Source of the DNA: Myxococcota bacterium
GTDB taxonomy: Bacteria; Myxococcota_A; Bradymonadia; UBA7976; UBA1532
Length of the DNA stretch: 64,000 nt
Assembly (NCBI GenBank): GCA_023150895.1
Contig: JAKLJY010000004.1
Location: 43,605-107,604, forward strand
Reading direction: 5' to 3'
Part shown: positions 1,485 to 54,651 of the stretch, piece after piece
Position numbering within the stretch: the stretch's first letter is position 1
Layout of the letters: each line of letters starts with the position of its first letter
The notes under the pieces: generated by a model
What the model saw: only the letters and a program-made list of their open reading frames with translations
What the model was told of the DNA's origin: nothing
The model's database searches: none
Program-made: the position numbers and the translations under genes

Positions 1485-1895
1485 TCAGCCGGCTTCGGAC
1501 GCCTTGCTCGACTCGACGAGTCGGCGAAACAGCGCCTCGCCGAGGTGCTCGACCATCAGCGCGTCGACGACGCGCTTGAGCGCGATCCGCTCCTGGTCGT
1601 CCTGAAACAGAAGTTCGACGCCCATCCCGGCTTCGACGCCGGGCGCCCCCGGGGAGACGACCCGCCGGACGACCCCCTTCAACGTGATCGGGGTCTCGAG
1701 CCGGGGGATGCTCAGCGTGAAGAGCGCCTCCGTGCCCGCCGGCAGGGGTTGGTCCGTTCGGACGAACAGACCGCCGCTGCTGATGTCCCGCGTGAAATCC
1801 GCGATGAACGCGTTGATGCGTTTGTATTCGACCTTGATCTCGATGGGCACGCGCGCCGACCGCCGTTGGTGAATGCCAGACATGCAACGGATCAT
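1485..1895 (-). CDS. PilZ-domain protein (putative c-di-GMP receptor)
   Basis: RxxxR motif (RRSAR) followed by DxSxxG (DISSGGLFV), diagnostic of PilZ. About 130 aa. Alternative start at the internal Met (about 1883). Confidence 0.6.
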   Translation of the reverse strand: MIRCMSGIHQRRSARVPIEIKVEYKRINAFIADFTRDISSGGLFVRTDQPLPAGTEALFTLSIPRLETPITLKGVVRRVVSPGAPGVEAGMGVELLFQDDQERIALKRVVDALMVEHLGEALFRRLVESSKASEAG

Positions 1896-1948
1896 GGCAC
1901 GTCACGTCCGATCGCGCCAAGGAATGCCGCGACGGCGCCGCGCGGGGC

Positions 1949-4177: not shown

Positions 4178-4254
4178 CAGGGGGCAGGCGGTTGGGGAAT
4201 GCTCCCGCGTTCTCCGCCGGTTCGGCGGAGCAGAACGACCGCCCGGAGCCTCGG

Positions 4255-18487: not shown

Positions 18488-18745
18488 GTCCGCCCGGGCC
18501 TCTCCCCGGAGAGCGGGGTCCGCGTCTTCGTTCTGCGCATGAGGCGATCGTCGCATGTCCCCCGTCGGCGGTAAAGCCGCGGCGGCACGGAGCGGGGCGC
18601 CCTGTGCGACGAAGACTGCGGGGCGGGTTCCCGGCGGTGATGATCTTCCGGGGCTCCGCACGCGGTGTTAGATTCCCGAGGCTGGAGTCGGGGAGGTCCG
18701 GGGGGCCGCCCCTCCGGCGAACCCGCCCGCTCCGCCCGAGGGTCG

Positions 18746-28006: not shown

Positions 28007-28100
28007 GGACGCCTCCACGGCATGGCGCCGCGGGCGGCATCGTAGCAGGGCGACGCGGCGCTGGGAACCGACCGGGGCATCCTGTGTTAGAGTCCGCCCC

Positions 28101-34711: not shown

Positions 34712-37700
34712 TCAGCCAATCGCGAGCCCGAGGGCCTTGCGGAGCTTGAAGTAGTTCTCCGAGAGCCCGTACAGGACGAGTTCGCGGACGCGATCCTGCA
34801 CCGGTGCCTTGCTGAACTGACCGGGCTCATTCTTGATGCAACGAACGGCCGCGCCGAGGTCGTTGCTCAGGACGAATCCGAGTCGATTCGACGAGTGCTC
34901 GATCATCTCGAGCCACTTCGACAGGTTCAGGTGCTGCTGCTGGTTCTCGCTCATCTTGGCGATCAGCTTGCTGATCTCCTGGAGGTCCGCCGCCGGAATG
35001 CCGCGGAAGCTCTCGAGCAGGTCGTCGTCCTTGAACGGAACCTCGGCCGCCGGGTTCACGAGCTTCATCACCGTGTAGACGATGGTGAAGAGGCGTGCCT
35101 TGCGACGCTCGTACGTCGGATCGATGGTGGCCGTGTAGAAGTGCTGGCCCATCATCATCAGCTGTTTCGAGCAGATGAACGCCAGTTCCTGCATGGATCG
35201 ACCGCTGAGCACGTCGCCCCCGACCATCATCGCGGGCGGGTTGAGGTTCGCGGACAGAATCCCATTCCCCGCGTCGGGGATGCGGAAGACCTCGACGCGA
35301 TGCAGACGGGTGACCTGAGTGACGTAGTTCAGCACGTTGTTGAAGGGGGTCTGCTCGGTCGGTTCGACCACGTCCTTCTTCTTGTGCAGCTTGAGGTCCT
35401 TGTGCTGCTGCGCCATCAGCGGGACGGTGTACTGATACAGCCGCTGGAAGAACTGCGCGAGCAGCAGGCTGAGCTCGGGGTGGTAGATCAGGCCCCACTG
35501 CTCGTTGTCGAGGGGCTTGCGGGCCTGCGCCAGCGTCTTGGACCGGTACTTCTCGAAGAAGGCGCGCTCGTCGGCGTTGGCATGACCGAGGTACGAGAGG
35601 ACCTGGCAAACGCACCAAGCCTCATCGTAACGGCCGCTCTCCATGAAGAGGCGTCGGACCTGCTGGTAGCTCTCCACGTTGCGCGGGTTGAGCTCGATCA
35701 TCTTGTAGTGCTCGGCGATCGCCTTGTCGGGCTGCTCGTTGAGTTCGAACAGCTCTGCGACGATCGTGTGCACCTGCAGGTCTTCCGGCGACTTCGTCAG
35801 CGCGATCTTGTAGGCCTTGATGGCCTCATCGTACTTCTTCAGTCGCGTCCGGTTGATCTCGCCGAGACCCTTCGCCAGCGTGATGACCAGCTTGTCGTCG
35901 AGCTTGGACTCCATCGCCCGCTTGAGCATCTTGCGGTAGTAGCGGTCCTGCCGCTCGTAGTCCCGCTCGTTGGTCAGGATCTGGTCGATGGCCTGGAACG
36001 CCTTGAGCATCGCGGCGTCGGCGTCGAGCGCCTTGTCGAGCGTGCGGACGGCCAGGAAGTTGTCCTTCAGCTCGTCTCGCTGAATGACACCGATGGTGTA
36101 GTAGTACTTCGACTGCCGCGCGGGATCCCGCTCGAGCTCCGCGAGGCGCGTGAGGATCTCGACGGCTTCGTTCCACTGTCGGGCCTCCTGGTAGAGGTCG
36201 AGCAGCTTGCTCAGCACGAGGCGGCTGTCCGACTGGACCGTGAGGGCCTCTTTGTAGGCGTCGACGGCCTTCGGCACGTTGCGCAGGTGCTCGCGCAGGA
36301 TGTCGCCGATCGTCACGAGCGACTGGAATCGATCGTTGGCGTCGAGGTCCAGCGCCAGCAACTGCCGGCGGTGATGGATGACGTCCTCCCAGTCGCCCTG
36401 CTTCTCGTGGAGATCCACGACGGCGCGCAGCACGCCCTCGTTGCGGGGCTCGAGGTCCAGCGCCTTCTTGAAGAAGTCGAGCGCCTTGCGCCGTTCGCCG
36501 ACCTTCAGCTTGATCTGACCCTGTCGATAGAAGATCTCGACGACGTCCGCCTCGCTGAGGTTCTCGCGATGGTGGACGAGGATCGTCTGGTAGATCTTGA
36601 AGGCGCGGTCCCAGTCTTCGCGACGGAACAGCAGGTTGCCCATGCCCTGCAGGGTGGGCAGGTGGGTGCTGTCGAGCTCGTACGCGGCCTTGTAATGGGT
36701 CAGGGCCTTCTCGTCCTTGTGGAGCTGCTCCGCGACGAAACCGACCCGGTAGTTGAGCGTCTGCAGCTCTCGAACGTCGGCGCTGGTGTTCGTCTTGTGC
36801 TGGACGATCAGGTCGAGCAGAGGCTCAGCGCGCTCCCACCGACGATCCTCCCAGTACACCTCGACGAGCGGCACCGCCGCCTCGACGTTGTCGTGCATGT
36901 CCCGCGACTGCTCGTAGTAGTCGATGGCCGCGCCCCGATCGCCGAGGAACTTCTCGTAGACCTGACCAATCTCGAAGAGGCACTTCGCCTTCTCCGGGAA
37001 GCTCTTCGTCGCCGCCTCGATCATCTTGAGGGTCCGGACGACGTCGCCCCACTCCGCGCGCTGCTCGTGGACACCCTTGAGGGCCTGCAGGGCGGGGAGG
37101 TAGGCCGGATCGTGTTCGAGCGCGCTCTTGTACCAGCGCTCGGCCTGGTCCAGGTCGCCGACCTTCTCCTCGTAGACCTTGCCGACCCGGTACTGCCGAT
37201 CGAGGACCAGGGGGCGCTCGTTGAGCAGATGCGCTTCGCGGCTCAGCGCGTCGATGCAGTTGGGCCAGTCCTCGACCTGAGCGTAGAGCTCGCCGAGGGC
37301 GGTCAGCGTCGCGAGGTGGCGAGAATCGATCTCGAGGACGGGCGTGAGCGTCTCGATGGCCGCATAGGCATCCGCCAGCGGACCCCGGTAGAGCGCTGCA
37401 AGCTGCGTGTACGTCGCCACGCGCGCCCGATCGTCCGTCAGGGCCTCGAGGTGGAGCCGGTACACGTCCGCGAGGTCGTGCCAGAGGCCCGCATCGCGAT
37501 ACAAACGTTCCAGGGCCCGGACGGCCTGGACGTTGGCGGCGTCGACCATGAGCATCTTGCGATACGTGTCGATCGTCGACGTCCGGTCACCGAGCTCTTC
37601 CTCCTGGATGAGCGCGATGCGTGCATAGATCGCGAGCTGCTGGGTCGGCTCCGTCTTGACGTTGAGCATCATCTCGAAGACGTCGAGGAGATCGCGCCAA

Positions 37701-40700
37701 CGGTCCTGTCCCGTGTACAGCTTCTCGAGCGCGGTCATCGCGTCGAGGCAACGGTCGTCGACGGAGAGCGCCTGCCGGTATGCGTCGATGGCGCGCTCCG
37801 GATTCCCGAGGCGGCCTTCGTAGAGTTCACCGATGCGGAGGTGGTTTTCGACGATCTGTGCCGCGTCGTAGATCACCTGCGTCTGGCGAACCAGGACGTT
37901 GATGAGGTCCTGCCAGCGTTCGCGGACGGCATACAGGCGTTCGAGCGCCTGCAGCGTACCGAGTTCGGTGTCGTCAATCGCCTGAACCTGCCGCCAGGCG
38001 TCGATGGCGGCGTCGGGACGCTCGAGGCGCTCTTCGAGGATCCGGGCCATCCGCTCGAGCGCGGCCTTGCGCTCGTCGGGCTCCGTGGAGAGCTCGGCGC
38101 GACGCTGCAGCACCGTCACGACCTCGGGCCACTTGTTGTAGCGCTCGAGGAGATTCTGGAGCGCATCGAGGGCCTTGAGATTGTCGGGCTCGATGGCCAG
38201 AACGTACTGATAGTGCGTCCCGGCGTGCTCCGGCGTCTTCAGGTAGCGATCGTAGATGCCCGCGACCCGCAGATGCAGACCGACCGAGGCCGGGACGTGC
38301 CCCATCCCGTGCAGGACGTTCTCGTAGAGGTGGACGAGGTCGGACCACTTGTCCCCGAGCCCCGCAAGCCGCTCGAGATCCCCACCGAGACGTTCATCGT
38401 CCTTGATCTCTTCGAACGCGTTGGAAAGCACGAGGAACGCGTTGTCGACGCTGTCGAGACGGGTCTCGAAGACACCCGCCGTCCGCCGGTAGAGCTCCTC
38501 GCGGTCGAACGGATCCGTCGTCGTCTCGAGGCGCTGCAGCAGCAGGCCGACGAGCTCCTCCCACTGCATGTCGGCGGCGTACAACCGCTCGAGTTCCTGG
38601 GACGCGTCGAGGTTGGTCGGCTGCAGCTCGAGGATCTGAGCGTAGGCCCGCTTCGCGCCATCGGCCTCACCGATGCGCTTCTCCCACATCTCGGCGACGC
38701 TGAAGAGGATGCTGACCTTGTCGAACGCGTCGACGGTGATGTCGGCCTTGCGATCGAGGACCTCGACACACGCGCGCCAGTTCTCCGAAGCAGTGTGAAG
38801 CGCCTCGAGCGCATCGATGGCGTCTGCATCCTGGGGGGCGAGAGAGAGCACGCTCGACCACGCGCGGACGGCGTCCTCCGGGCTCTCGAGCGCGGTCTGG
38901 TAGAGTTCGCCGAGCTGACGGTAGAGGTCGACGCGCCGCGCGTCGCTCCCCGGCAGCAGGTCGAGCAGTCGGTGATCGGCGCGCGCGAGGTCGGCAAACT
39001 CCGCCGTGCGCTCGTGCAGGCCCCGAATGGCCCACAGGGCCGCTTCATGACCGGCGTCGCGGTCGAGGACCTTGTTCCAGTTCTCCAGGGCGTTGCGCTC
39101 GCGATCGAGGTAGTCGCCCCACACGCGACCGAGCTTCGAGAACAGCTCGATCTCGCGCTCGACACCGTTGTCCGGGAGGTTGACCTGACGGTCGCAGACG
39201 TCGACGAGCTCGCGCCAGCGCTCCTGCCCCTCGTAGAGGCCCTCGAGCGCGCGCAGTGCGGTCGGGTCCTCCCCTTCCAGATCGAGGACCTTGCTCCACA
39301 GATCGATGGCGTCGTCGGGACGCTGCAGCATCTGAGACGCGATGTCGGCCATCCGGGCGAAGAGGCGCGCCTTCTCCGCGTCGCGCTCGGCGACCTCGGA
39401 CTGCCGGTTCAGAACGTCGAAGAGCGGCTCCCACTCTTCCCGTGCCTGGTAGATCTGCTCGAGGCGGGCCAACGCACCGGCATGGTGCGGTTCCTGCTCC
39501 AGGATGCCCCGGTACTGTTCGACCGCGAGGTCGAGCTCGGTCAGCCACGTCTCGTAGACCTGTCCGAGCCGGTACATGAACGCGAGCAGCAGCGGCTCGT
39601 CGTAGGTGGCACCGATCTCCCGGCGCAGAACCTCGACGAGTTCCGCCCAGCGGTGCTGCTGCACGTACAGTTCGTCGAGACCGGTGAGCGCGGCGGCATC
39701 GACCGGGTCGATCTCCAGAATGTACCGGTACATCCGCTCGGCCGACTCGTCGTCCGAGAGCCGCGTGCGGTAAAGCACGGCCATCTCGTGCGCGAGGGAC
39801 TTCAGCAGCTCCGCGTCCTGCGTCCGGTGCATGCCCTCGGTGAACGTCCGGACGAGATCGCCGTAGCGTTCCGTCGCGGCCGCAAGCCGAGAGAGTTCCT
39901 TGCGGCCCGTCTCGTCCTCCGGCGTTTCCTTGAACGAGATCGCGTACCAGTCGAAGGCGCGCTCCGGCTCGGCGAGATGCTCGATGCAGAGTTCGGCGAG
40001 ACGGTGCAGGTGCCGCGTGCGGTCATCGCCCGGCTCTTTGAACGGAAGAAGCGCCTCGAGCACGCCGTGCAGGCGGATCCAGTCCTGGCGCTCCAGGTAC
40101 AGGGGCTCGAGGATCTCGCCGATCTGCGGGCGCTCGTGTCCCGCGTCGAAGAGGCGCACCAACGCGCCGACCGCGTCCGGTTGCTCCGCCTGCTCGACCA
40201 GCACGTCCTTGAACGTATTGATCGCCGTCGGGACGTCGTCGAGCGCCGTCTCGTAGAGGCTCCCCAGGCGGAGCAGCAGCGCGATCCGCTGCGGCACCTC
40301 CGTCGCCCCCTCGACCTCGACCCGGAGGATGTCGGCCAGATCGGCCCACATGCCCTCCTTCTGATAGAGGCGGTCGAGGGCGAGGATCGCCCCCTGATGG
40401 TCGGGCTCGACCTCGCGGACGCGGCGATAGCGCTCCACGGCATCGACGTTCGACCCGAGCTCTTCCTCGTAGATCCGGGCCACCCGGAGATACAGGTCGC
40501 GAGCAATGGCGTCCGTCTGCACGTGGCCGAGGAGCTGCTCGATCAGACCGGCGAGCCGGTCGAAAGCCCCGGAGGTCCGTGCGACGCGCTCGAGCGCGGC
40601 AAAGGCCTCGAGGTGAGCGCCATCCTCTTTCACCGCTTCCGCATAGGCATCGAACGCCTGATCGGAGTCGGCGAGCATGTCCTCGAACGCTGCGCCCACC

Positions 40701-43700
40701 TGCAGATGGAGCGCGGTCCGGGCGTCCACCTCCGAGGTGACCTCGAGCAGTGAGCGCCAGCCGGCGATCAGGCGATCCCAGGCCCCGGCCTTCTCCAGAA
40801 CGGGCTGGAGGACCGCCATCGCGGCCACCGACTCGCGGTCCGTGCGAATGAGTCCTTCGAGCGCCTGCAGGCTCGGCTCGTGCCCCGGCCACTGGGCCAG
40901 AATGTCGCGATACCCTTCGATGGCGGTCGGGACCTGCTCGAGCGCCGTCTCGTACAGGTTCGCGATCCGGAAGTGCAGCGCGACCTGCGCTTCGGGCTCG
41001 CTGACCACGGCGACTTCGCGAACGAGAATGCCGCGCAGCTCTTCCCACTTCTCGAGGCGGTGATAGAGGCTGTCGAGGCACTGCAGGGCCGTGAGGTCCT
41101 GCGCGTCCCAGCCGAGGACCGTCTGGTACGTCTCGACGGCCCGGGTCAGGTCGTCGAGTTCGCGGTCGTACGCCGCGCCGATGACGTAGTAGATGTCCTT
41201 CCGGGCTGCCAGGTCCTCGGTGAGTTCGGCCTTGCGGTGCAGGATCTCGAGCAGGTCCTCCCAGCGCGCGAGCGACAGGAAGATGCGCTCCAGAGCATCG
41301 AGCGCTTTGGCATCGACCGCATCGACCTCCAGGACGGCCCGGTAGATCTCCACCGCGCGGTGCGGATCGCTGAGCATCTCCTCGAAGATGGCGCTGACCC
41401 GGAAGAGGAGATCCTTCTTCGGGAACGCCTCCTCCGTCAGCTCGGCCTTCCGCAACAGGACAGCGACGAGTTCGTTCCACTGTTCCGTCTGGAAGTAGAT
41501 GTCCTCGAGGGCGGCAATGCACTCGAGGTCGGTGTCTTCCGCGGCGTAGGCGGCCTCGTAGTGGCGCCGTGCGCCGGCAAGGTCCCGCAGGTTCCCCAGT
41601 TGTACACGCGCAACACGCTTGTGAATATCGGTCGCGACCGCCGGCTCGGAGATGTCGTCGACGAGCCCTTCGTAGACCGCGACGAGCTCGCCCCAGATCT
41701 CCAGCGCCTCCGCAATCCGGGTCAGCTCCGCCAGCGTCCGGCCGTTGCCGGGCTCGACCGCGAAGGCCCGGGCATAGCTGCGGAACGCCTCGTCCGGTGC
41801 GCCGCCCCGGTTCTGATGGAGCTCGGCGATCCGATGGAGCAACTCCACCTGCCGCTCGGCGGTGTCGGCGTGCTCACGCTGGATCTCGTAGACACCGACC
41901 AGCTTCTCCCAATCGTCGCGGCCCCGGTAGATGGGCTCGAGAATGTCGGCGATCGTCGCCTGATACTCGGGCTCTCCCAGCAGCCGTTCGAGCGCCCCGA
42001 GGGCATCGGCGTTGTCCGGCGTCTGCGTCACCACCGTCCGATAGGTCTCGATGGCCTGCGCCGCGTTCCCGAGTTCGCCCTCCTGCAAGGCACCGAGGCG
42101 GACCTGCAGGCTGATCTTCTCGGCGTCGTCGGTCGCGAGGGCCAGCTGGCGTTCGATGACCTCGCCGAGCTCGGTGAACTGGCCGAGTGCCCCGTACAGA
42201 CGATCGAGTGCTCGGAGGGCCCGGACGTTGTGCTCGTCGGCCTCGAGGATCTCGCGGTACGTAACGATGGCCTCGTTCGGATCCTCGAGCATCTCCTCGA
42301 GGAGTTGACCGATCTGGAACTGCAGCGCTTCGCGGACGTCCGGGAGCTCCGTCAGCTCGAGCTTGCGCCGATAGATCGCGAGCAGCTCCGGCCACATCTG
42401 GGCCCGGGCGTACAGGCGTTCGAGGCTCTCGATCGACGTTCGGTTGTCCGCCTCGAGATTGAGCACCCGGGTGTGCGCATCGATGGCTCGGGGCACGTCG
42501 CCGAGCCGCTCCTCGTAGACGACGGCCAGGCGGGCGAGCAGTGCCCGGGCGAGCGCGTCGTCCTTCGCGTCGGGAGTGACCTCTTCGAGCAGCGCGGCGA
42601 AATCCTGGAACTTCTGACCGACCTCGGCGAGCTCCGAGAGCCGGCCCACCGCGACGTGACTCGACGGCACCTCGCGAAGAGCGCGAGCGAATGCGTCGAA
42701 CGCTCGGTCCACGTCCGCCGTCCGCGCGGTGTGCAAGGCACCAATCCGCTCGAGGAGCTCGAAGCGCTTGACGGTCTCCGCCGTGTCCTCGAGCTCGATT
42801 TCGAGCACTCGGACGAGGGCCTCCCATTCACCCTGATCGTGGTAGATCGGCTCGAGGATCTTGGCGACCGGACCGCGGAACTCGGGGTCGATCAACAAGC
42901 CTTCGAGGGCGCTGCGCGCCTCGGCGTGTGTCGGGTTGGCCTCGAGAATGTCCCGGAACGCACCGATGGCATCGGCCGTGCGACCGAGCGCGTGCAGCTC
43001 GATGAACCCGAGCTGAAGCTTGAGGGGCAGCGGGTCCCCTTCACCGGTCACGGCGATGAGCTGCAGTTCCCGCTGCAGGACGTCATGGAGTTCCTCGAAA
43101 CGCTCGCCCTGCTGGAAGAGGCGGTGCAGCGCCGCAAGGGCGTCACGGTCGCCCTCGTCCTCGGCGACGATCGCTCGGTACTTCTCGACGGCAGAGTCCG
43201 CGTCGTCGAGTTGCTCTTCGAAGATGACCCCCTGCTTTCGCAGCAGGGCCTTGCGCGCCTCGATCCCATCCGCGAGAGCGAGCTTGCGATCGATGACGCC
43301 GAGCAGGTCATGCCAGCTCGCGAGCCGGGTATACAGGCCCTCGACCGCGTCGAGCGCCACGAGATTCTCGGGTTCGATCGAAAGGGCGTCGTGGTAGCGG
43401 GCGAGCGCGTCGTGCGTCTGCCCCATGTTCTGATCGAGAATCCGGGCCAACGCCAGCGTGATGTGCAGCTGAGCGGCGGTATCACCGGCGGCGTTCGCGA
43501 GCGCCGAGACGAGGTCGTCGTGGACGGTGGACCACTGGTGCGTCAGTCCGCCGAGGCGTTCGAGCTCGCCCTGCACCTCGACGTCCGTCGGGTGTTCCTG
43601 GAGGGCGCGTCGAACCCACTCGAACGCGGAATCGGGATTGCGAAGGTGCTGCTCGTAGATGCGCGCGCTGCGCATCATCAGCTGGCGTCGCTCCGTCGGG

Positions 43701-46423
43701 TCGGTCTCGTGCTCGAGCAGCACGTCGAGCACCGTGGCGAGTTTGCGGTACTCGTGGGCGGCTTCGTAGATGGGCTCGAGCGCGCGTGCGCCGACGACGT
43801 TCCGCGGTTCGATCTGCAGAATGCGTTCCAGCGCACGGACGGCGCGGTCCTTCTGCTCGAGCCGGGCTTCGAAGATGGTCGCCGTCCGGAAAAGGAGGTC
43901 GATCTTCGTCGCATCGTCCTTCTGAACGCCGACCTGCCCGTCGAGGAGCCGGACGAGCTCGTCCCACTTCTCCCGGACGCCGAAGTATTCGGTCAGGGCG
44001 TCCCAATCGCCGAGCTCGATGAGCGCCTTCTTGAGGCTCTCGCCGGCGCGCCGGTGCTCGGGTTCGATCGAGATGAGCTTCTGCCAGACGGCCACGCATC
44101 CTTCGCGATCGGCGAGGCGATCCTGGAGGACCATGCCGGCTTTCTGCAGCAGGTCGACACGCTCGGCCACGTCGGACACGTTGTCGACGAGGGCACCGGC
44201 GGTCTCGACCATCTTCTCCCAGTGCTTCTCCGACTCGTAGAGCCCGACGAGGGCGCGAAGGGCGTCGATGTCGCCGGGTTGAATCGCGAGAACCTGCTCC
44301 CACAGTTCGAGCGAGATCGAGGGCCGCCGGATCTTCTTGGTGGCGTTGTCCGCAATCTCCTTGTACTTGGCGGCTCGCGCCGAAGGCTCCGTTTCCGTGT
44401 CGGCCAGCTGCCGCTGCACCGCGACGAGCTTCTCCCACTCGCGGCGCTTCTCATACATGTCCTGCAGGTTCTCGATCGCCGTCCGATTGCCGGGGTCGTC
44501 GCCGAGCACCGCTTCGTACGCCTTGATCGCCTCCGCCTGGTTCCGGAACTTGTCGAGATACAGGTGGGCGATCCGGAGGTTGAGTCCGATCCGCTCGTCC
44601 GTCTCGACGGCCCCATCGACCTGCTTCTGCAAGAGCGCGACGAGATCCGGCCAGCGGCGCATCGCCTCGTACTTGTCCGCGAGGACACGAACCGCCTCGC
44701 CGTCCGACGGATCGAGCTGGAGCACCTGCCCGTACAGGTTGACGACCATCGCGTCGAGATTGAGATGCTGCGTGTAGACCGCGATCAGGGTCTTGAGCGC
44801 CTCCACCTTGCGGGCCCGATCCGAGTCGGGAATCTCCTCGACCTCGAGCTTGAGGATCTCCACATAGGCGTTCCACTTCTCGCCGGCCCGGTAGAGGCGC
44901 GCGAGCGCCTGCCGCGCGTCGCGGTCGGTCTTGTCCGCGAGGTGGACCTGGCGCCAGAACTCCGTCGCCTTGTCGGGCTCACCCGCGCGCTCCTCGGCAA
45001 GGACCGCCATTCGACGGAGGGCGTCGGTGCGGTTCGCCGGCGTATCGCCGCCGGCGGCGTCCGTGAACATCTGCTGGATGTTGCGCCACTTGCCCGTCTC
45101 GATGAGCCGCTGGATCTGCCACTCGCGGGCGCCGTGGTCGTCGCCGGCGACCTTGGCGAGTTCGCGGAGCTTCAGATCGACGAGCTTCCCTTCGTCGAGG
45201 TGAAGGCCTCCGAAGAGAATGCGTTCGCCCTGCAGCGCGTGGGCCGCAGCCGGGAACTCGGCCGCGAGCGCCTCGAGCCCTTGGGCGATGGCCGCGGCCA
45301 CCTCCCTCGGCGCCTTGAGCTTTCGGGCAACGCGCGCGTAGACCCGAACGTCCCCGGGCTGCTCGCGTACCGCCGCCAGGTAGTTCGCGGCAAACTCCGG
45401 AAATGCCCCCGCCTCGGGGGCCATGACTTCGAGCGTCGCGACCGGATCACGACCGTCCGCGGCCCGAAGGCGTGCTGTGAGGGCTGCCACATCGACGGCC
45501 GGCGTGGGGGCTGCGGGCTGCGCCGCTTCGACCGCCGGCTCGGCCGCAGGCTCGCTCGCCGCTTCGACCACCGGCTCGGCCGCAGGCTCGCTCGCCGCTT
45601 CGACCACCGGCTCGGCCGCAGCCTCGCTCGCCGCTTCGACCACCGGCTCGGCCGCAGGCTCGCTCGCCGCTTCGCCTGCTGCGGGCCCTCCGAGTTCCTC
45701 GAGCTGTTGACGCATTTCAGCGTCATCGGGACGCAGGGCGAGGTAGCGCTCGAAACACTGCCGCGCCATGTCCGTCTGGTCGAGGTCGTACAGGAGCACG
45801 TTGCCGAGTTCCTGGAAGATCTCCGCCTGACGATCGGCGTCCTCCACCGACTGGAGTTCCAGGTCGAGGAGTTGTGCGACCATCTCCCAGTTGCCGACCT
45901 GCCGGTAGATTCGACGGGCCGCATACAGGGCGCGCAGGCACCGGTGGTCGGCCTGGAACGCCGCCTGGTAACAGACCATGGCGCGTTCCTGGTCGCCGAT
46001 CTTCTCCTCGAGCACCTCTCCGAGTTCGTAGATGAGTTCCGCCCGCGCACCGACATCTTCGGTGCGCTCGACCTCGGCCTCGCCGACCTGAACCCACCCT
46101 TCCCAGTCCTCGAGCTGCCGCAGAAGGACGCGCATGCGACCGAGCACGATGAGCGGCTCGGGATCGGCACCGAGCCCCGCGTTGTAGATCTCGATCGCTC
46201 GTCGGGCGTCGCCCAGATTGCGCTCGGCGACCTCGCCGGCACGGCGCAGGAAACCCGCAGCCCGACTCGGCTCTGCCGTGTTCTGGGCGAGGTGGACATA
46301 AAGATCCACCAGCGGGGCCCACTGCTCCTCGGACGTCAGCAACGCCTCGAGCTCACGGGCCGCCGCCTCGTTTCCCGGATCCTGGACCACCACATCGAAG
46401 AGCTCGCGAACACGCTCGTTCAT
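34712..46423 (-). CDS. agmK: giant cytoplasmic TPR-repeat protein, 3903 aa (AgmK/GltI-like, gliding-motility cluster)
   Basis: Uninterrupted 11.7-kb ORF, start at MNERVRELFD (ATG 46423, preceded by a GGAAAAAGG RBS-like stretch). No signal peptide. About 45 copies of a roughly 73-aa TPR-like double repeat. In-frame 36-bp x4 tandem repeat near the N-terminus. Non-TPR C-terminal about 330 aa (K/N/Y-rich). Sits at the gltI position of a G1-like gene order. The symbol is assigned by architecture and synteny only. Confidence 0.8.
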   Translation of the reverse strand: MNERVRELFDVVVQDPGNEAAARELEALLTSEEQWAPLVDLYVHLAQNTAEPSRAAGFLRRAGEVAERNLGDARRAIEIYNAGLGADPEPLIVLGRMRVLLRQLEDWEGWVQVGEAEVERTEDVGARAELIYELGEVLEEKIGDQERAMVCYQAAFQADHRCLRALYAARRIYRQVGNWEMVAQLLDLELQSVEDADRQAEIFQELGNVLLYDLDQTDMARQCFERYLALRPDDAEMRQQLEELGGPAAGEAASEPAAEPVVEAASEAAAEPVVEAASEPAAEPVVEAASEPAAEPAVEAAQPAAPTPAVDVAALTARLRAADGRDPVATLEVMAPEAGAFPEFAANYLAAVREQPGDVRVYARVARKLKAPREVAAAIAQGLEALAAEFPAAAHALQGERILFGGLHLDEGKLVDLKLRELAKVAGDDHGAREWQIQRLIETGKWRNIQQMFTDAAGGDTPANRTDALRRMAVLAEERAGEPDKATEFWRQVHLADKTDRDARQALARLYRAGEKWNAYVEILKLEVEEIPDSDRARKVEALKTLIAVYTQHLNLDAMVVNLYGQVLQLDPSDGEAVRVLADKYEAMRRWPDLVALLQKQVDGAVETDERIGLNLRIAHLYLDKFRNQAEAIKAYEAVLGDDPGNRTAIENLQDMYEKRREWEKLVAVQRQLADTETEPSARAAKYKEIADNATKKIRRPSISLELWEQVLAIQPGDIDALRALVGLYESEKHWEKMVETAGALVDNVSDVAERVDLLQKAGMVLQDRLADREGCVAVWQKLISIEPEHRRAGESLKKALIELGDWDALTEYFGVREKWDELVRLLDGQVGVQKDDATKIDLLFRTATIFEARLEQKDRAVRALERILQIEPRNVVGARALEPIYEAAHEYRKLATVLDVLLEHETDPTERRQLMMRSARIYEQHLRNPDSAFEWVRRALQEHPTDVEVQGELERLGGLTHQWSTVHDDLVSALANAAGDTAAQLHITLALARILDQNMGQTHDALARYHDALSIEPENLVALDAVEGLYTRLASWHDLLGVIDRKLALADGIEARKALLRKQGVIFEEQLDDADSAVEKYRAIVAEDEGDRDALAALHRLFQQGERFEELHDVLQRELQLIAVTGEGDPLPLKLQLGFIELHALGRTADAIGAFRDILEANPTHAEARSALEGLLIDPEFRGPVAKILEPIYHDQGEWEALVRVLEIELEDTAETVKRFELLERIGALHTARTADVDRAFDAFARALREVPSSHVAVGRLSELAEVGQKFQDFAALLEEVTPDAKDDALARALLARLAVVYEERLGDVPRAIDAHTRVLNLEADNRTSIESLERLYARAQMWPELLAIYRRKLELTELPDVREALQFQIGQLLEEMLEDPNEAIVTYREILEADEHNVRALRALDRLYGALGQFTELGEVIERQLALATDDAEKISLQVRLGALQEGELGNAAQAIETYRTVVTQTPDNADALGALERLLGEPEYQATIADILEPIYRGRDDWEKLVGVYEIQREHADTAERQVELLHRIAELHQNRGGAPDEAFRSYARAFAVEPGNGRTLAELTRIAEALEIWGELVAVYEGLVDDISEPAVATDIHKRVARVQLGNLRDLAGARRHYEAAYAAEDTDLECIAALEDIYFQTEQWNELVAVLLRKAELTEEAFPKKDLLFRVSAIFEEMLSDPHRAVEIYRAVLEVDAVDAKALDALERIFLSLARWEDLLEILHRKAELTEDLAARKDIYYVIGAAYDRELDDLTRAVETYQTVLGWDAQDLTALQCLDSLYHRLEKWEELRGILVREVAVVSEPEAQVALHFRIANLYETALEQVPTAIEGYRDILAQWPGHEPSLQALEGLIRTDRESVAAMAVLQPVLEKAGAWDRLIAGWRSLLEVTSEVDARTALHLQVGAAFEDMLADSDQAFDAYAEAVKEDGAHLEAFAALERVARTSGAFDRLAGLIEQLLGHVQTDAIARDLYLRVARIYEEELGSNVDAVERYRRVREVEPDHQGAILALDRLYQKEGMWADLADILRVEVEGATEVPQRIALLLRLGSLYETALDDVPTAINTFKDVLVEQAEQPDAVGALVRLFDAGHERPQIGEILEPLYLERQDWIRLHGVLEALLPFKEPGDDRTRHLHRLAELCIEHLAEPERAFDWYAISFKETPEDETGRKELSRLAAATERYGDLVRTFTEGMHRTQDAELLKSLAHEMAVLYRTRLSDDESAERMYRYILEIDPVDAAALTGLDELYVQQHRWAELVEVLRREIGATYDEPLLLAFMYRLGQVYETWLTELDLAVEQYRGILEQEPHHAGALARLEQIYQAREEWEPLFDVLNRQSEVAERDAEKARLFARMADIASQMLQRPDDAIDLWSKVLDLEGEDPTALRALEGLYEGQERWRELVDVCDRQVNLPDNGVEREIELFSKLGRVWGDYLDRERNALENWNKVLDRDAGHEAALWAIRGLHERTAEFADLARADHRLLDLLPGSDARRVDLYRQLGELYQTALESPEDAVRAWSSVLSLAPQDADAIDALEALHTASENWRACVEVLDRKADITVDAFDKVSILFSVAEMWEKRIGEADGAKRAYAQILELQPTNLDASQELERLYAADMQWEELVGLLLQRLETTTDPFDREELYRRTAGVFETRLDSVDNAFLVLSNAFEEIKDDERLGGDLERLAGLGDKWSDLVHLYENVLHGMGHVPASVGLHLRVAGIYDRYLKTPEHAGTHYQYVLAIEPDNLKALDALQNLLERYNKWPEVVTVLQRRAELSTEPDERKAALERMARILEERLERPDAAIDAWRQVQAIDDTELGTLQALERLYAVRERWQDLINVLVRQTQVIYDAAQIVENHLRIGELYEGRLGNPERAIDAYRQALSVDDRCLDAMTALEKLYTGQDRWRDLLDVFEMMLNVKTEPTQQLAIYARIALIQEEELGDRTSTIDTYRKMLMVDAANVQAVRALERLYRDAGLWHDLADVYRLHLEALTDDRARVATYTQLAALYRGPLADAYAAIETLTPVLEIDSRHLATLTALGELYAQVEDWPNCIDALSREAHLLNERPLVLDRQYRVGKVYEEKVGDLDQAERWYKSALEHDPAYLPALQALKGVHEQRAEWGDVVRTLKMIEAATKSFPEKAKCLFEIGQVYEKFLGDRGAAIDYYEQSRDMHDNVEAAVPLVEVYWEDRRWERAEPLLDLIVQHKTNTSADVRELQTLNYRVGFVAEQLHKDEKALTHYKAAYELDSTHLPTLQGMGNLLFRREDWDRAFKIYQTILVHHRENLSEADVVEIFYRQGQIKLKVGERRKALDFFKKALDLEPRNEGVLRAVVDLHEKQGDWEDVIHHRRQLLALDLDANDRFQSLVTIGDILREHLRNVPKAVDAYKEALTVQSDSRLVLSKLLDLYQEARQWNEAVEILTRLAELERDPARQSKYYYTIGVIQRDELKDNFLAVRTLDKALDADAAMLKAFQAIDQILTNERDYERQDRYYRKMLKRAMESKLDDKLVITLAKGLGEINRTRLKKYDEAIKAYKIALTKSPEDLQVHTIVAELFELNEQPDKAIAEHYKMIELNPRNVESYQQVRRLFMESGRYDEAWCVCQVLSYLGHANADERAFFEKYRSKTLAQARKPLDNEQWGLIYHPELSLLLAQFFQRLYQYTVPLMAQQHKDLKLHKKKDVVEPTEQTPFNNVLNYVTQVTRLHRVEVFRIPDAGNGILSANLNPPAMMVGGDVLSGRSMQELAFICSKQLMMMGQHFYTATIDPTYERRKARLFTIVYTVMKLVNPAAEVPFKDDDLLESFRGIPAADLQEISKLIAKMSENQQQHLNLSKWLEMIEHSSNRLGFVLSNDLGAAVRCIKNEPGQFSKAPVQDRVRELVLYGLSENYFKLRKALGLAIG
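45521..45676 (-). repeat. perfect 36-bp tandem repeat x4.3 (unit cgccgcttcgaccaccggctcggccgcaggctcgct on + strand), in-frame within the giant gene
   Basis: Four near-identical copies (one with a G to C variant, first copy cac to cgc) plus a partial fifth. They encode (AASEPAAEPVVE)n in the N-terminal region of the 3903-aa protein. Confidence 0.9.
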
Positions 46424-46579
46424 CAAAGTCGCCTTTTTCCGGACGTCGCTGGATGGTCGTGGCGCTGCCACGATGATCGAATGAACCTGCACCGTTCGCC
46501 CGCCCCCGGGGGCCGAGCGCGACTCTTATAGCATCGGGCGCCCGGGCCGACAACGACCACGGGCCGGCCGGCGCGGGAC

Positions 46580-47452
46580 TCAGGGCGCCGACGGAGGCGT
46601 CGGGTTCTCTGCCCTGTATTCCAGCTTGGCGATCGTCTCTTCGGCCGTGCGAACCCGGAGGGGTTCCTCGTCGTTGGCACGTCGGGCCAGGAAGAGACGG
46701 AGGTGGTGGATCGCCTGCTCCGCGTTGTCGTTCTCGAAGTAGGCGATGCCGAGGTTGAACAGCGCGTTCGTGAACGTGGGCTTCAGCTTGATGGCCGCCT
46801 GGAACGCTGCAATCGCGTCGTCGTAGCGTTGCTGGTTCTTGTAGATGACGGCCAGGTCGTGATGAAGCTCCGGAAACTCCGGATTGTTCTCAATGCCGTT
46901 CTTGAAGACCTGAATCGCCTGCGCGTACTTCTCGAACCGCGCGTACAGGTTGCCGAGCGCCTGGTACGGCTGGCCGAAGCGGGGCTTCAGCTTGATGGCC
47001 TGGATGAACTCCTCCTGGGCCCGGTCGAACTGCGCCTGGTTCTGAAGCGCGACGCCGAGTTCGAAGTGGCTCTCTCCCATGGCCGGGTTCTTCTCGATGG
47101 CCTTGCTGAACGCGTTGATGGCCTGCGGCCAGCGCTTGAGACGACCGTGAACCTTCCCGAGGTGGTAGTGGTACTGGGCCACTTCGGGATTCAGCTCGAT
47201 CGCTTTCTCGAAGTCGCGAACCGCCTCTTCGGGCTGGGAGGCCCGTTCAGCCCGGAGCAACCCGCGCTGGTAGAATGCGGCGTCGTTCGTCGGGTCGATC
47301 GTGACCGCCTCGTTGAACTGCACGATGGCGCCGGCAGTGTCACCCGCCTTGAAAGTCCGAACCGCCTCGTTCACCAGCTTGTCGGACTTGTTGCGCTCCA
47401 GATTGCAGCCGAGCGCAACGACCGCGCACGTGGCGATCCACCATCGCTTCAT
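46580..47452 (-). CDS. TPR-repeat lipoprotein (occupies the gltH position of a G1-like cluster)
   Basis: Start at MKRWWIATCAVVALGCN (lipobox). About 7 canonical TPRs (..AFYQRGLLRAERASQPEEAVRDFEKAIELNP..). Confidence 0.7.
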   Translation of the reverse strand: MKRWWIATCAVVALGCNLERNKSDKLVNEAVRTFKAGDTAGAIVQFNEAVTIDPTNDAAFYQRGLLRAERASQPEEAVRDFEKAIELNPEVAQYHYHLGKVHGRLKRWPQAINAFSKAIEKNPAMGESHFELGVALQNQAQFDRAQEEFIQAIKLKPRFGQPYQALGNLYARFEKYAQAIQVFKNGIENNPEFPELHHDLAVIYKNQQRYDDAIAAFQAAIKLKPTFTNALFNLGIAYFENDNAEQAIHHLRLFLARRANDEEPLRVRTAEETIAKLEYRAENPTPPSAP

Positions 47453-47925
47453 CGACGACCTCCGACCTTCGGGCATTCGCCGGTTCTGGTAACAGAGGGG
47501 ATCGCTCAGGTCAAGCGAGGGGTGCGGGCGACCGGCGTTTCGAGTCGGAAGCCCCGCTTCCATGTTCTGCAAGGTGACTGGCGACCGAATCGTCTACCGA
47601 CGCTCGCGCCGGAAACCTGTCGCCCCGGCGGCCGCCAGCGCTTGCCGCGCGCATCGGACGCGCGCATCCGGTCGGTCGTCCCCCCCTCCGTCGCGCGCCG
47701 TTGCGAACGGAATGACGCTCGCTCGACCGTTGCAGGCGCACCGCCGTCGTCTCGACGCCAGTTGGGCGGCGGTTGTGGCGAAACGCCCCGCGCGGCGGGC
47801 CGCGGCCGGGGCGAAACAGCCACTGGACTGAAGACGGGAGCGCGAAACCGGTGGGATCGAGGGAACGACCGTGCGCCAGAAACAGGCGCGACGTCAGCCT
47901 GTGAAGGGAGCGGGAGACCGGAGGA

Positions 47926-49746
47926 CTAGTTCGAGGCCTTGAACACGAACGGGTATTTGACGGTCACGATGCCGCCGCCCTTCGGCTCCGGAAAGACCCA
48001 GCGCTTGATCTTGTCGACGAGGCAGCTCTCGACGTCGCGGTCTCCCATGGTCGACTCTTCGATGACGGCCGCAATCACGCTGCCATTGCCCGAAATGGTG
48101 AACTTGACCGTGACCTTGCCGGCAAGGTCGCGCTTCACGTTGAGCTGCTTCTCGTAGCAGTACTTGTACTCCGCCGCATGCTGACGAATGATCCGACGGA
48201 TGGTCTCCATGTCGAGCGCGCCGCTGACGATGGGCTTGCCGGGGATGACCTGCGGGATCTTGCCGGAGCGTTCCCCGTAGCGCGACACTCCGCGGCCGTA
48301 ACCCGAGCCGCCTTCGCCACCCCCGCGTCCCATCGTGCCGATGTTCCCGACACCGATGGAGGAATCGCTGAAGCCGCCGCCGCCACGACCGGCACCGGCA
48401 ACGCCGAGTCCGCCGTAACCAGCCGCTTCACCCGTACGGTCGCCGAACATGTTGCCGAGCGCGCTGACGGCGTCCTCGCCGAGCGCCCGCTCCTGCGTGC
48501 CCCACACCGCGCTCAGCTCGCCCTCGAGCTGGTTGAAGGCAGCATTGGCCGTGTTGAGGGCCTCCATCTTGGCGCGTTCCTTGGCAAGCTGGATCTTCTC
48601 GGTGTCGGGCGGACCTTTGATCGCGAACCGCTGGTTCTTCTGATCGGAGTCCTTCTTGCCCATCTTGCCTTCTTCGTCACGCGCCTTGGCGGCTGCCTCG
48701 CCCTCATCCTCCTTGAGGCCCTTGAAGAGGTCCTCGATCTTGTCTTCTTTCTCGGTCTCCGGCTTGAGCATGAACTCGACGTAGCGCTCCTGCACGTCGA
48801 AGGCGTCGAGTTCGAGCCGCTCTGCGTCTTCCGGGACGGAAAGGATGATGGCTGCGAAGAGCGCATGAAGCGCCGCCGCCGCAAGGAAGTAGCGGCCGAA
48901 GTGTCCGTCGAACGAGGAGAAGATGCCGACCGGCGGCAGCGGACGGACCGCCGCGACATGATTCACGAGGAACGTGGCGCCACCGAAGTGGAGGCGCGCG
49001 CGGGCCTTCGGCGGGAGTCGCAGCGCGTGGCTCCGGGTCACGCTGCTGCTCTTCCCCAGCTTGCCGGCGGCCTTCAACTCGTCGAGCGAGTACACCTGCC
49101 CGTCGAGCATGACGTCGCCCTGCACGCTTTCGGGCACGTTCACGACCATGTCCGCGCCGTTGGTCGAAGCGAGGGGGTACGGGTCTTCCGGTACGAGGTC
49201 ACCCCGGACGAAGTGATTCACCTCGTTCGCCTGACCGATCGTATAGGTGCCCTGCTCACGCAGATGGCTGATGTCGACCACGGCGTCGCCGAACATCGCG
49301 ACGACCTCGAGTGCGCGGCCGCCGTCCGAATCCGACTCGTCTTCCTCGAACGTCGGCGCGCGGCGCGCGACCTCCTGGGGACGAACGATGGCCGTCGCCA
49401 TCGCATTGACGTCCGGTCGTGCCGAGGCAGCGCTCTGGCCCGAGATCGTCACGACGATGCGGTGTCGGCCGAGCGTCAACGCGTCTCCGCTCCGGAGCCG
49501 CTGCTTGGTCACCGGTTGCCCGTTGACCAGCGTGCCTTTGGTGCTCCCGAGGTCGAGCACGACAACGTCGTCCGCACTGCCGACCTCGATGACGGCGTGC
49601 ATGCGCGAGACGTCGTCATCGTCGATCCGAAGGTGCGACGACGAGAGCTTTCCGATCTTGATCGTCGGCTCGGCGAGCACCTCGGTTCGCACGAGGCGAT
49701 CACCGTCGTAGATCTCGAACTGAATGGGAACTTTGGGCGTGTCCAT
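47926..49746 (-). CDS. FHA-domain / single-TM / Gly-rich / TonB-C-like protein (GltG/PglI(AgmV)-like)
   Basis: N-terminal FHA (..IGKLSSSHLRIDDDDVSRMHAVIEV...LDLGSTKGTLVNGQPV..). TM helix (YFLAAAALHALFAAIILSV). Gly-rich linker. C-terminal TonB_C-like fold (..GKVTVKFTISGNGSVIAAVIEEST..VKYPFVFK). Confidence 0.8.
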   Translation of the reverse strand: MDTPKVPIQFEIYDGDRLVRTEVLAEPTIKIGKLSSSHLRIDDDDVSRMHAVIEVGSADDVVVLDLGSTKGTLVNGQPVTKQRLRSGDALTLGRHRIVVTISGQSAASARPDVNAMATAIVRPQEVARRAPTFEEDESDSDGGRALEVVAMFGDAVVDISHLREQGTYTIGQANEVNHFVRGDLVPEDPYPLASTNGADMVVNVPESVQGDVMLDGQVYSLDELKAAGKLGKSSSVTRSHALRLPPKARARLHFGGATFLVNHVAAVRPLPPVGIFSSFDGHFGRYFLAAAALHALFAAIILSVPEDAERLELDAFDVQERYVEFMLKPETEKEDKIEDLFKGLKEDEGEAAAKARDEEGKMGKKDSDQKNQRFAIKGPPDTEKIQLAKERAKMEALNTANAAFNQLEGELSAVWGTQERALGEDAVSALGNMFGDRTGEAAGYGGLGVAGAGRGGGGFSDSSIGVGNIGTMGRGGGEGGSGYGRGVSRYGERSGKIPQVIPGKPIVSGALDMETIRRIIRQHAAEYKYCYEKQLNVKRDLAGKVTVKFTISGNGSVIAAVIEESTMGDRDVESCLVDKIKRWVFPEPKGGGIVTVKYPFVFKASN

Positions 49747-49754
49747 GGGCTCTC

Positions 49755-50039
49755 TCAGATGTCCTCGGCCGACTTGAGCATCTCCGGCACGAAAGATTCG
49801 CGAATGCGAATCAAACTGCTGTGCCGGGCCGCGCGGCGCGCGTCCAGGTATTCACCTTCAGGGCGGATGAACGAACCTTCCACCACGTCGTCCTCGAAGT
49901 CGTAGACGGTCTCCTTCTTGTAGACGACACCGGGATCATTCGGATCCTGGACCACGTCGTCTCCGGCCGCCTGGGCCATTGCCGAGGCCGGCGCGACGGC
50001 GACGATGGAGAGAAGAAGGACCACGAACTTCGAGCGCAT
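49755..50039 (-). CDS. small secreted protein, 94 aa (GltF-like position)
   Basis: Start at MRSKFVVLLLSIVAVAPASAMA with a strong SD (AAGGAG 6 nt upstream). Begins 8 nt upstream of the FHA gene start. Confidence 0.5.
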   Translation of the reverse strand: MRSKFVVLLLSIVAVAPASAMAQAAGDDVVQDPNDPGVVYKKETVYDFEDDVVEGSFIRPEGEYLDARRAARHSSLIRIRESFVPEMLKSAEDI

Positions 50040-50155
50040 GCAGAACTCCTTTCGGACGGCGGACACGCCGGCCGAGATGATAGCCGCGTTTGACGGAGGT
50101 GGAAAGCTCGCTCAACGGGTGAGACACGGGCCCGAGAGCGAAGTTCCCGAGAAAA

Positions 50156-54400: not shown

Positions 54401-54651
54401 TCGCGGAACTTGTCCTCCGACTGAGCCTCGGCGGACTTCCGGCTCCGGGCCTGCTCCATGTTCATGCGGGGGCCCTTCTTCTCGGCCTCCGCTTTCTTCT
54501 TCGGGTCGACCTGACCGAGGTCGGCCTGACCCTGGGCCTTGATCTCCACCTGGCGCTTGCTGCCCTGGGCCCAGGCGCTCGAAGCGCCGCACAGGAGGGA
54601 CAGGGCCAGGGCGCCGCGCAGCGCGAGGCTCTTGCACGTCATCGACCGCAC
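51415..54651 (-). CDS. large secreted TPR-repeat protein, about 1075 aa (GltD/AgmU-like)
   Basis: Sec signal (..LSLLCGASSAWA/QG). TPR and helical repeats throughout. Lys/Tyr-rich. Likely ATG at 54642 overlapping the upstream stop (ATGA); the track start is GTG 54651. Confidence 0.8.
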   Translation of the reverse strand: MRSMTCKSLALRGALALSLLCGASSAWAQGSKRQVEIKAQGQADLGQVDPKKKAEAEKKGPRMNMEQARSRKSAEAQSEDKFREALELLRKLIASTPDNDPAKPDLYDRLSEMYWQRSSDLFIRAYDREGECLKKAGGNKGAEKGCEVERDKLLQSSQKYRDDAIKVYVDIVKNFPQYPRLDGVLFALGYNYQQKQEPEKAKKIYIELIKRYPKSPHVADTLTNIGEIYFDAGEVEQALKAYQKVVTNYKDAQTYGYALYKLGWCFMNIADYKQALAQFLMVVKFTNEQTGRPSPNRLSLKKEALRDLVRAYVNIEDANPNQAIPFFRKAAPDDYLTLAENLADLYSLTGQFEKSNRLYRDLIAQSPNSYKVVHYEMQVAFNTRNMSRDATEIVREVKRLVDLWRKVREAKDADPKKVAADGEKIEELVRSLSVQMHIQWTKTKNNDDYAISYELYKDYIEVFPQGPNIYTIQFYFAELAYAGQKWLEAAKAYEATLNIKADGEFTPDAAQGQVLSYKKLIDIKQDQGTGDVANVESKGDGGVPPPKPLPESHVKFIKACDIYSKFVKESEYLVDIEYDAARIYYDFNQFNEAMPRFKSISEKHPEHRLAVFAANLLLDAYNITGDMVTLEKQVDIFLKIYTAQRDPEFYALLLKLKQQSSFKKCQGIERTKEYVKAATCFKQYAANYPTSEFVDKAFYNAALNYEREKMLEQSIEMKLKIVNEVPQSELVPKALFQIAGNLHALAIYSQAAKIYEAYAEKFPKEENARDALRNAAVFRQGLGDYDQALADSVAYMKLIGSKPDEAAEVFFSMGLTYKKQEKWDDVIRHFNEYLRKHGKAGKIDLTLEAYVHIGNAYEKKKDVTNAQKAYATSYAAFTKLGDAEKKDLTTGLTAVAEARFQMGEAIRREFDAVKLKIHPYQNVKKFIEEMTKVIVKKSELIASARAVYLEVIEFRSANWAIAALTRIGEMFQQLANDIYDAPAPGSFNEEQVETYKGSMAERAQPVEAKAIEAYVTAVKKAQELRWFNEYSDKAAKELARLSPKEYRYDGEVRAKPEHFGDATFRQPYITDLHVQEEQ

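Follow-up and report, generated by a model that had tools for sequence, protein, structure and literature searches.

Why does a giant gene carry one nearly uniform tandem array close to its start, and can the number of copies in that array be trusted? The gene lies on the minus strand of a 64,000-nucleotide stretch of contig JAKLJY010000004.1 (assembly GCA_023150895.1, a Myxococcota bacterium), which we call the window, and encodes a tetratricopeptide repeat (TPR) protein of 3,903 residues. Our answer, which we consider probable, is that the array is a young in-frame coding minisatellite in a disordered acidic Ala/Pro/Glu/Val linker, and that this linker tethers an N-terminal module to the TPR solenoid of a counterpart of GltI/AgmK. 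An in-frame variable-number tandem repeat (VNTR) in a disordered linker is a familiar and well understood kind of variation, and also a known cause of assembly breaks and of length heterogeneity in databases. What is new is the address: a GltI-like gliding-motor scaffold in a gltC-G cluster of a freshwater, Bradymonadia-like lineage.

The 36-bp array and its reading frame

The gene and the parts of it that concern the array are as follows (window positions):

34712-46423, minus strand: gene of the giant TPR protein (3,903 residues, GltI/AgmK-like), comprising a TPR solenoid and a conserved, mainly helical C-terminal domain
45686-46423, minus strand: N-terminal TPR-like module (residues 1-246), with 14 predicted helices and an amino acid identity of 92% to relative L001 and 68% to relative L003 (see below)
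45494-45685, minus strand: complete acidic linker (residues 247-310, 64 residues), including the degenerate edge copies PAAGE and AAQPAAPTPAV
45521-45676, minus strand: whole tandem array, 4.3 copies of a 36-bp unit, with a partial copy of 6 nt at each end
45527-45670, minus strand: four full units of 12 codons each, in frame (residues 252-299 of 3,903, counted from the ATG)
45635-45670, minus strand: unit 1 in coding sense, encoding AASEPAAEPVVE
45599-45634, minus strand: unit 2 in coding sense, encoding AASEAAAEPVVE
45563-45598, minus strand: unit 3 in coding sense, encoding AASEPAAEPVVE
45527-45562, minus strand: unit 4 in coding sense, encoding AASEPAAEPAVE
45622, minus strand: variant base of the second unit (C on the plus strand, G in the others), which changes Pro to Ala
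45534, minus strand: variant base of the last unit (G on the plus strand, A in the other units), which changes Val to Ala and makes the array exit unique

Tandem Repeats Finder (TRF) reports the array at 45521-45674 with a period of 36, 4.3 copies, 97% matches, no indels and a score of 294. This is by far the strongest array in the window, the next unrelated one scoring 60. When all in-frame lags from 3 to 120 bp are scanned, a self-identity of at least 93% is reached solely at lag 36 (45518-45572). Together with the TRF score, this places the array far beyond chance. A 12-bp sub-period is also reported by TRF and matches the Glu found at every fourth position. The units follow each other in the order A-B-A-C: only units 1 and 3 are identical, and the four units deviate from their consensus at 2 of 144 bases (45534 and 45622), in both cases non-synonymously. 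The longest exact repeats inside the array measure 51-52 nt. Copies at its edges are degenerate (PAAGE upstream, AAQPAAPTPAVD downstream), and the remaining direct repeats of the gene, which are its TPR units, reach just 60-90% identity at the DNA level.

The first-pass annotation, made from the sequence alone, had described a perfect 36-bp tandem of four copies at 45521-45676, in frame and near the N-terminus, in a gene where near-identical DNA copies are otherwise rare. Both TRF and the unit table agree with the location, the frame and the copies, and the rarity is borne out by the divergence of the TPR units. The word 'perfect' has to be dropped given the 97% matches and the two amino-acid-changing substitutions.

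The open reading frame (ORF) that hosts the array spans 3,926 codons (34712-46492, minus strand). Its true start is the ATG at 46423 (MNERVRELF...), which is common to all orthologs and to public gene calls; the start motif MNER[VI]RELF is present in every ortholog. With a GC fraction of 0.74/0.38/0.87 at the three codon positions, the minus-strand frame is the coding frame. A long plus-strand ORF (40880-46531, 1,883 residues) overlaps the array as well, and the repeat might be assigned to that ORF, or to a non-coding element, instead of the minus-strand gene. We give this assignment practically no chance. The plus-strand ORF fails the codon-position GC filter that the minus-strand frame passes, by which it is ruled out as the reading of the repeat. 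In addition, relatives conserve the minus-strand protein over its whole length, and the gene calls on public contigs follow its frame. With head-to-tail units whose length is a multiple of three, located inside an ORF, the array is an in-frame coding tandem repeat.

Most of the 64-residue linker is encoded by the array. It contains 25 Ala, 13 Glu, 11 Pro and 8 Val (together 89% of its residues), no Lys, Arg or Asp and no aromatic residue, and carries a net charge of -13, in agreement with the acidic Pro/Ala/Glu linker that had been proposed from the sequence at first sight. In the ortholog alignment it forms a gapped, hypervariable block. Single-sequence AlphaFold2 predicts no secondary structure for residues 244-311 (predicted local distance difference test, pLDDT, 38-44), with helices resuming at lower confidence beyond the linker. 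The 14 helices of the N-terminal module are modelled at residues 3-243, with block-mean pLDDT values of ~85-96 over the first 150 residues and 59-92 beyond. Low complexity, a composition that is kept although the sequence is not, and the lack of predicted stable structure are all features of a disordered linker. The N-terminal 246 residues are a separately tethered conserved module, a second new element of this locus. Judged from the models, the linker reads as an extended, flexible, acidic tether between this conserved TPR module and the solenoid.

Turnover of the linker in relatives

Six related loci were obtained from one scan each of species-representative genomes and JGI metagenomes. The nearest (L001) is a Bradymonadia metagenome-assembled genome from Lake Mendota, with 84-87% nucleotide identity over 22 kb, and from gltC to rsmI the genes of L001-L003 follow the order seen in the window. 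All five close relatives (L001-L005) carry an acidic repeat at the identical place, after ...LRPDD.EM...L.ELGG:

L001: unit AAPEPVVE, 24 bp in 11.5 copies, 80% matches
L002: unit AAPEPE[IP][AV]VE, 30 bp in 12.3 copies
L003: unit AAPEPVVE, 24 bp in 11.5 copies
L004: unit AVEEPVAE or AFEAPVAE, 24 bp
L005: unit VEEPVAA, 21 bp in 9 or more near-identical copies; the array is cut off by the contig end

A comparison of copy number in relatives had been suggested as a check, and it gives units of 24, 30, 24, 24 and 21 bp, all differing from the unit in the window. L004 and L005 share 96% amino acid and 90% nucleotide identity in the next domain, yet their repeats differ in period. The sixth locus holds a more distant homolog (L006:2950-5445, 37% identity), which begins right after the linker position and is without N-terminal module and linker.

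In the alignment set formed by the window and L001-L003, the orthologs measure 3,903, 3,959, 3,982 and 3,991 residues and their linkers 64, 120, 142 and 149 residues. Of the 56, 79 and 88 residues by which the orthologs exceed the window protein in length, 56, 78 and 85 are due to the linker, as would be expected if, as first supposed, gain or loss of units keeps the frame and changes the linker length. A third new point is that the linker, by this alignment, appears to be the sole length-variable part of a protein of ~3,900 residues. Linkers range from 64 to ~150 residues among the orthologs, that of the window being the shortest; for motility work this offers a natural series of linker lengths that extends to ~150 residues and more.

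Differences between units tell how old the array is. Relatives' linkers keep the acidic Pro/Ala/Val/Glu make-up with different units, and their arrays hold runs of DNA-identical neighbouring units whose codon choices are genome-specific. Units of the window are 97.2% identical pairwise without any synonymous difference (79-91% identity within the relatives' arrays), whereas four-fold degenerate sites of the window gene are only 38-56% identical to those of the orthologs, which is near saturation. It follows that the 36-bp unit was amplified long after the lineages of the window and L001 had separated, and the recent expansion that had been suspected is confirmed. The window unit could be derived from two ancestral units of 8 codons by the loss of four codons (AASEP + AAEPVVE), and its EPVVE core has the same codons as in L001.

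An old and fixed array could show the same homogeneity at constant copy number if gene conversion, or selection for the exact sequence, maintained it. Both unit differences being non-synonymous, and the flanks being identical in all samples found, would suit such an array. Nonetheless we regard it as very improbable: unit length and number differ in every relative, even at 90% nucleotide identity; the array has degenerate edge copies and a homogeneous centre, as expected of an actively turning-over array; and unit indels at strain level are seen in five sister lineages.

These lineages come from a wider family set of 1,542 representatives, obtained with an exhaustive HMMER search (E<=1e-30), of which the best 150 nearly all measure 3,300-4,200 residues. 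The ~140 full-length representatives span 3,100-7,700 residues (mostly 3,300-4,200), and named homologs are from Bradymonadia, Lujinxingia litoralis, Polyangia, Polyangiaceae, Myxococcales, Kofleriaceae and Anaeromyxobacter. Of these, Lujinxingia litoralis (WP_111729458.1) is a cultured relative that has a linker of this kind. According to a crude composition filter, an acidic low-complexity segment of at least 40 residues occurs within the first 1,000 residues in 36 of the 140 full-length representatives, and several of these segments have tandem units of their own. In five clusters at 90% identity, full-length members from independent assemblies differ in length solely inside the acidic repeat region (protein lengths, identity, difference):

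P0065: 4,044, 4,058 and 4,065 residues, 99.8-99.9% identity, a 7-residue insertion and a 14-residue deletion
P0105 and P0186: 4,026 and 4,033 residues, 99.98% identity, one 7-residue unit
P0125 and P0189: 4,042 and 4,052 residues, 100% identity, two 5-residue units
P0025 and P0190: 3,932 and 3,939 residues, 93.7% identity, one 7-residue unit
P0096: four length alleles among eight proteins, 99.7-99.8% identity, indels of 3-11 residues, all in the repeat region

These indels have the size of one or two repeat units, and no others are present in the five clusters over ~3,770-4,065 aligned columns. Where 'identical' giant TPR proteins are of unequal length in databases, it is mostly the linker repeat that differs. 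The claim of ongoing copy-number change stands in part: it holds for turnover among relatives and for strain-level indels in five other lineages, and goes no further than these. Two side observations concern this set. In P0096 the acidic repeat (EASSAEAV-type units) is found at residues ~20-120, at the very N-terminus and not between two TPR parts. Furthermore, P0105, P0186 and P0188 are mis-named 'golgin subfamily B member 1' in JGI, an annotation error that probably stems from the acidic low-complexity region.

The mechanism we propose is a simple one. By slippage or unequal recombination, near-identical 36-bp units would come out of register as the DNA replicates or recombines, and whole units would be gained or lost with the frame intact. 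Selection would keep the frame and the composition (acidic, rich in Pro, Ala and Val, no basic residue, and in this lineage Glu at every fourth position), but not the unit sequence, the unit length or the copy number. Such loose constraint suggests that the linker acts as a length-variable spacer, flexible, extended and negatively charged, whose length may vary from 64 to ~150 residues among orthologs. A DNA hairpin driving the slippage was also sought. The array folds worse than every one of 200 shuffled sequences (z=+3.1), which rules out hairpin-driven slippage.

Instead of being a spacer, the repeats could form a multivalent docking motif, in which short acidic, proline-containing peptides are bound by a partner domain and the copy number sets the valency. 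As partners one may think of a domain of the GYF or FHA type within the Glt machinery, or else of TPR modules that bind with their concave face in cis or trans. GYF domains and TPR grooves are generally known to bind proline-rich or acidic extended peptides, and a motif of the PE/PV/VE type recurs in the closest relatives. GltI is moreover predicted to carry multiple sites for the FHA domain of GltG and possibly sites for the GYF domain of GltJ (PMC11761067). However, the unit sequence differs across the family (AATDEAP, EPEAT, APEQAAE and Ser/Asp/Glu units of 16-17 residues) and the composition alone is conserved. About three quarters of the representatives lack such a segment by composition criteria, and L006 lacks N-terminal module and linker altogether. 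We therefore think docking, by any of these partners, unlikely. A related thought is that the hypervariable linker may tune the cytoplasmic platform of the gliding motor. Its length or valency would determine over what distance, or how often, the GltI solenoid can be engaged by the N-terminal module or by another partner (for example GltG-FHA, a domain of the GYF type, AglZ or MglA). Rapid gain and loss of units within near-identical strains would then be an adaptation of surface behaviour or of motor clustering, and not neutral. We regard this as improbable.

Assembly breaks and the count of four

A separate matter is whether there are really four units. Through an exact look-up of the adjacent GltG-like protein we obtained 12 Logan contigs from at least ten sequencing runs, with 99.3-100% identity to the window. 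Among these contigs, four independent ones of the same strain as the window (SRR17665588, SRR17665568, SRR17665567 and SRR26977155) end at 45645, 26 nt into the first unit. On the other side, three Logan contigs (L018-L020), 100% identical to the window over 11.1-12.9 kb, begin at 45564, at a distance of 31 nt from the variant base at 45534. The start at 45564 was predicted beforehand and was confirmed via a look-up of the 3,616-residue partial product. Both positions are the exact k=31 limits of the array. Since each 31-mer is held only once in Logan contigs by construction (PMC12424806), the breaks prove an assembly problem and confirm both edges of the array.

Positions 45565 to 45644 are not bridged by Logan contigs, and no exact match to the full protein of 3,903 residues was found. 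With the N-terminal 600 residues as query, and with both flanks joined without the linker, only 2-3 distant matches each were obtained among 8,000 scored candidates, and these included no N-terminal fragment from this species. Similar trouble is seen in a relative: the L005 contig (JGI Ga0114972_10000246, 39.7 kb; L005:1-217) ends inside its own array of at least nine near-identical 21-bp units. The suspicion that the array is a hotspot for assembly error is therefore well founded, with seven k=31 contigs breaking at its two edges and a JGI contig ending in the array of a relative.

This brings up the possibility that the count of four is itself an artefact, the real array being longer, or heterogeneous in the population, and collapsed by a short-read assembler to the shortest path. 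Such a collapse would bear on the count alone, leaving the repeat itself and the minisatellite reading untouched. Besides the breaks just described, it is favoured by the short linker in the window (64 residues against 110-149 in the orthologs) and by the exact repeats of 51-52 nt, which assemblers with k up to ~51 cannot resolve. Also, the order A-B-A-C would be the minimal path that visits every junction k-mer. On the other hand, the array is just 156 nt long and can be reached by a single read of 150-250 nt or by a read pair; the two variant units anchor a k of 55 or more; both flanks are 100% identical in independent contigs; and the longer arrays of relatives were assembled through. We consider a collapsed count doubtful, though a chance to be reckoned with. 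If the window was assembled from short reads, four copies would be a lower bound, given that A-B-A-C is the shortest path through all junction k-mers. As contigs demonstrably break at the array, stopping at 45645 and resuming at 45564, reads that span it are needed before four copies can be relied upon.

The giant protein, its neighbourhood and known systems

In Myxococcus xanthus the G1 gliding cluster reads gltD-E-F-G-H-I-J (PMC3169522, PMC11761067). GltI (AgmK) is a giant cytoplasmic TPR protein of 3,822 residues with a large helical C-terminal domain, is encoded next to gltG, and has been proposed as a scaffold for several motor units through multiple GltG-FHA sites (PMC11761067; PMC3169522). 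Upstream of the giant gene of the window lie the following genes:

46580-47572, minus strand: 330-residue TPR protein, between the gltG-like and the giant gene; Pfam TPR; 290 residues in Logan gene calls
47926-49746, minus strand: GltG-like protein with FHA and TonB_C / AgmX-PglI C-terminal domain; NF033760 gliding_GltG, E=1.9e-120; Pfam FHA and TonB_C
49755-50066, minus strand: CglF/GltF-like protein; NF033764, 89.5 bits
50156-51418, minus strand: GltE-like protein; NF033758, 157 bits
51415-54651, minus strand: 1,078-residue TPR protein in the GltD position; no gliding model match
54639-56204, minus strand: GltC-like protein; NF033756, 418.5 bits

For the GltC-, GltE-, CglF- and GltG-like genes the glt models of NCBIfam are the best matches. 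On one side the cluster borders on yraN, rplS and trmD, on the other on rsmI; gltK/B/A were not found upstream of the gltC-like gene, where yraN, rplS and trmD are present instead. The 330-residue TPR gene is conserved at the equivalent position in L001-L004 and L006. In L006 the gene upstream of the homolog (1948-2910) encodes a TPR lipoprotein that is 31% identical to this 330-residue protein. Between the window and L001, protein identity across the cluster is uneven at a uniform nucleotide identity of 84-87%: 99.4% for GltC, 98% for GltG, 97.5% for the GltD-like protein and 97.6% for the C-terminus of the giant protein, against 90% for the GltE-like and 83% for the GltF-like protein.

The giant protein itself matches solely TPR-type families in Pfam along its 3,903 residues, spread over residues ~470-3,600, and its TPR body beyond the linker comprises ~3,600 residues. 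The last 420 residues, modelled by AlphaFold2 with a 13-sequence alignment (pLDDT 92.5), show TPR helices up to about residue 130 of this part, followed by a mainly helical domain with a small three-stranded sheet. This C-terminal domain (34715-35600, minus strand, last ~290 residues, pLDDT ~90) has no informative match among solved structures. Its N-terminus, MNERVRELFDVVVQDPGNE, is polar with a helix modelled from residue 3, which supports a cytoplasmic location as judged from the sequence and the model. A giant TPR protein with a helical C-terminal domain, cytoplasmic and encoded in a gltD-G-type cluster, corresponds to what is described for GltI/AgmK (M. xanthus MXAN_4863, compared by its description). 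From position and architecture, we infer that the giant protein is GltI-like. It would then be a putative counterpart of the cytoplasmic scaffold that has been proposed for Agl-Glt gliding and its bacterial focal adhesion machinery, in a host that is a freshwater relative of Bradymonadia. No NCBIfam model matched the giant protein as GltI, and no source name links the family to M. xanthus AgmK, its named members being called 'tetratricopeptide repeat protein'.

Several observations weigh against the overall reading of a minisatellite in a disordered linker of a GltI counterpart. As for the linker, its AlphaFold2 model is built from a single sequence, and the charge-hydropathy plot (Uversky) puts it marginally on the 'folded' side (hydropathy 0.513, net charge 0.203, boundary 0.279); the marginal miss is due to the high Ala and Val content, as in Ala/Pro-rich E2 linkers. 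Regarding the assignment, NCBIfam scores stay under the curated cut-offs (GltC 418.5 against 450, GltE 157 against 225, CglF 89.5 against 90 and GltG 403 against 650 bits), and gltH, gltJ, gltA/B/K and aglRQS were not seen in the 64-kb window. With respect to copy number, none of the contigs recovered from other samples of this species crosses the array, and the length differences in other lineages are from metagenome assemblies and may partly be assembly errors. Despite these points we hold the reading to be probable.

Elsewhere in the window a second very large ORF (4772-13306, minus strand, 2,844 residues) passes the coding-frame GC test and has weak, scattered TPR matches, by which two giant repeat proteins (34712-46423 and 4772-13306) are present within 64 kb. 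A plus-strand gene at 18665-22018 encodes a protein of 1,117 residues with HEAT repeats and an MshEN domain, a type known to bind c-di-GMP, and a sigma-54 activator/response regulator (26621-28258, minus strand) is located near it.

Summarizing, the locus can be compared with four kinds of known system. GltI is the closest: the proteins are of similar size (3,903 residues here, 3,822 in M. xanthus), the gene is placed just downstream of gltD-E-F-G homologs, and both proteins have TPRs throughout, a non-TPR, mainly helical C-terminal domain and no signal peptide (PMC11761067, PMC3169522). The acidic repeat linker, however, is absent from the descriptions of GltI in PMC11761067 and PMC3169522. 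Other differences are that the host is Bradymonadia-like and not of the Myxococcales in the strict sense, that between gltG and the giant gene a gene for a 330-residue TPR protein stands in place of gltH, that no gltJ follows the giant gene, and that the neighbours score below the NCBIfam equivalog cut-offs.

At the DNA level the array resembles repeats of Staphylococcus aureus in spa (Xr, 24 bp) and clfA (Ser-Asp), coding VNTRs that form spacer regions, break short-read assemblies and vary in copy number through slippage or unequal recombination. These also consist of in-frame, head-to-tail units of near-identical DNA with a length that is a multiple of 3 nt. They are mostly found in surface or secreted proteins under immune or phage pressure, whereas the protein here would be a cytoplasmic scaffold, and here the unit length is replaced between close relatives. 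At the protein level the C-terminal linker of FtsZ is comparable: a disordered tether whose sequence and length vary between species while composition and disorder are kept. Unlike the present linker it usually has no tandem DNA repeat, its acidity is less even, and experiments have addressed its dependence on length. Finally, the inter-domain linkers in E2 chains of 2-oxo-acid dehydrogenases, like the spacer of TonB with its (Glu-Pro)n/(Lys-Pro)n stretches, are Ala/Pro/Glu-rich, extended and semi-flexible, and let a small module reach distant partners. Those are short, of fairly constant length and without recent arrays at the DNA level, and the TonB spacer has a basic half, whereas the linker described here contains no basic residue.

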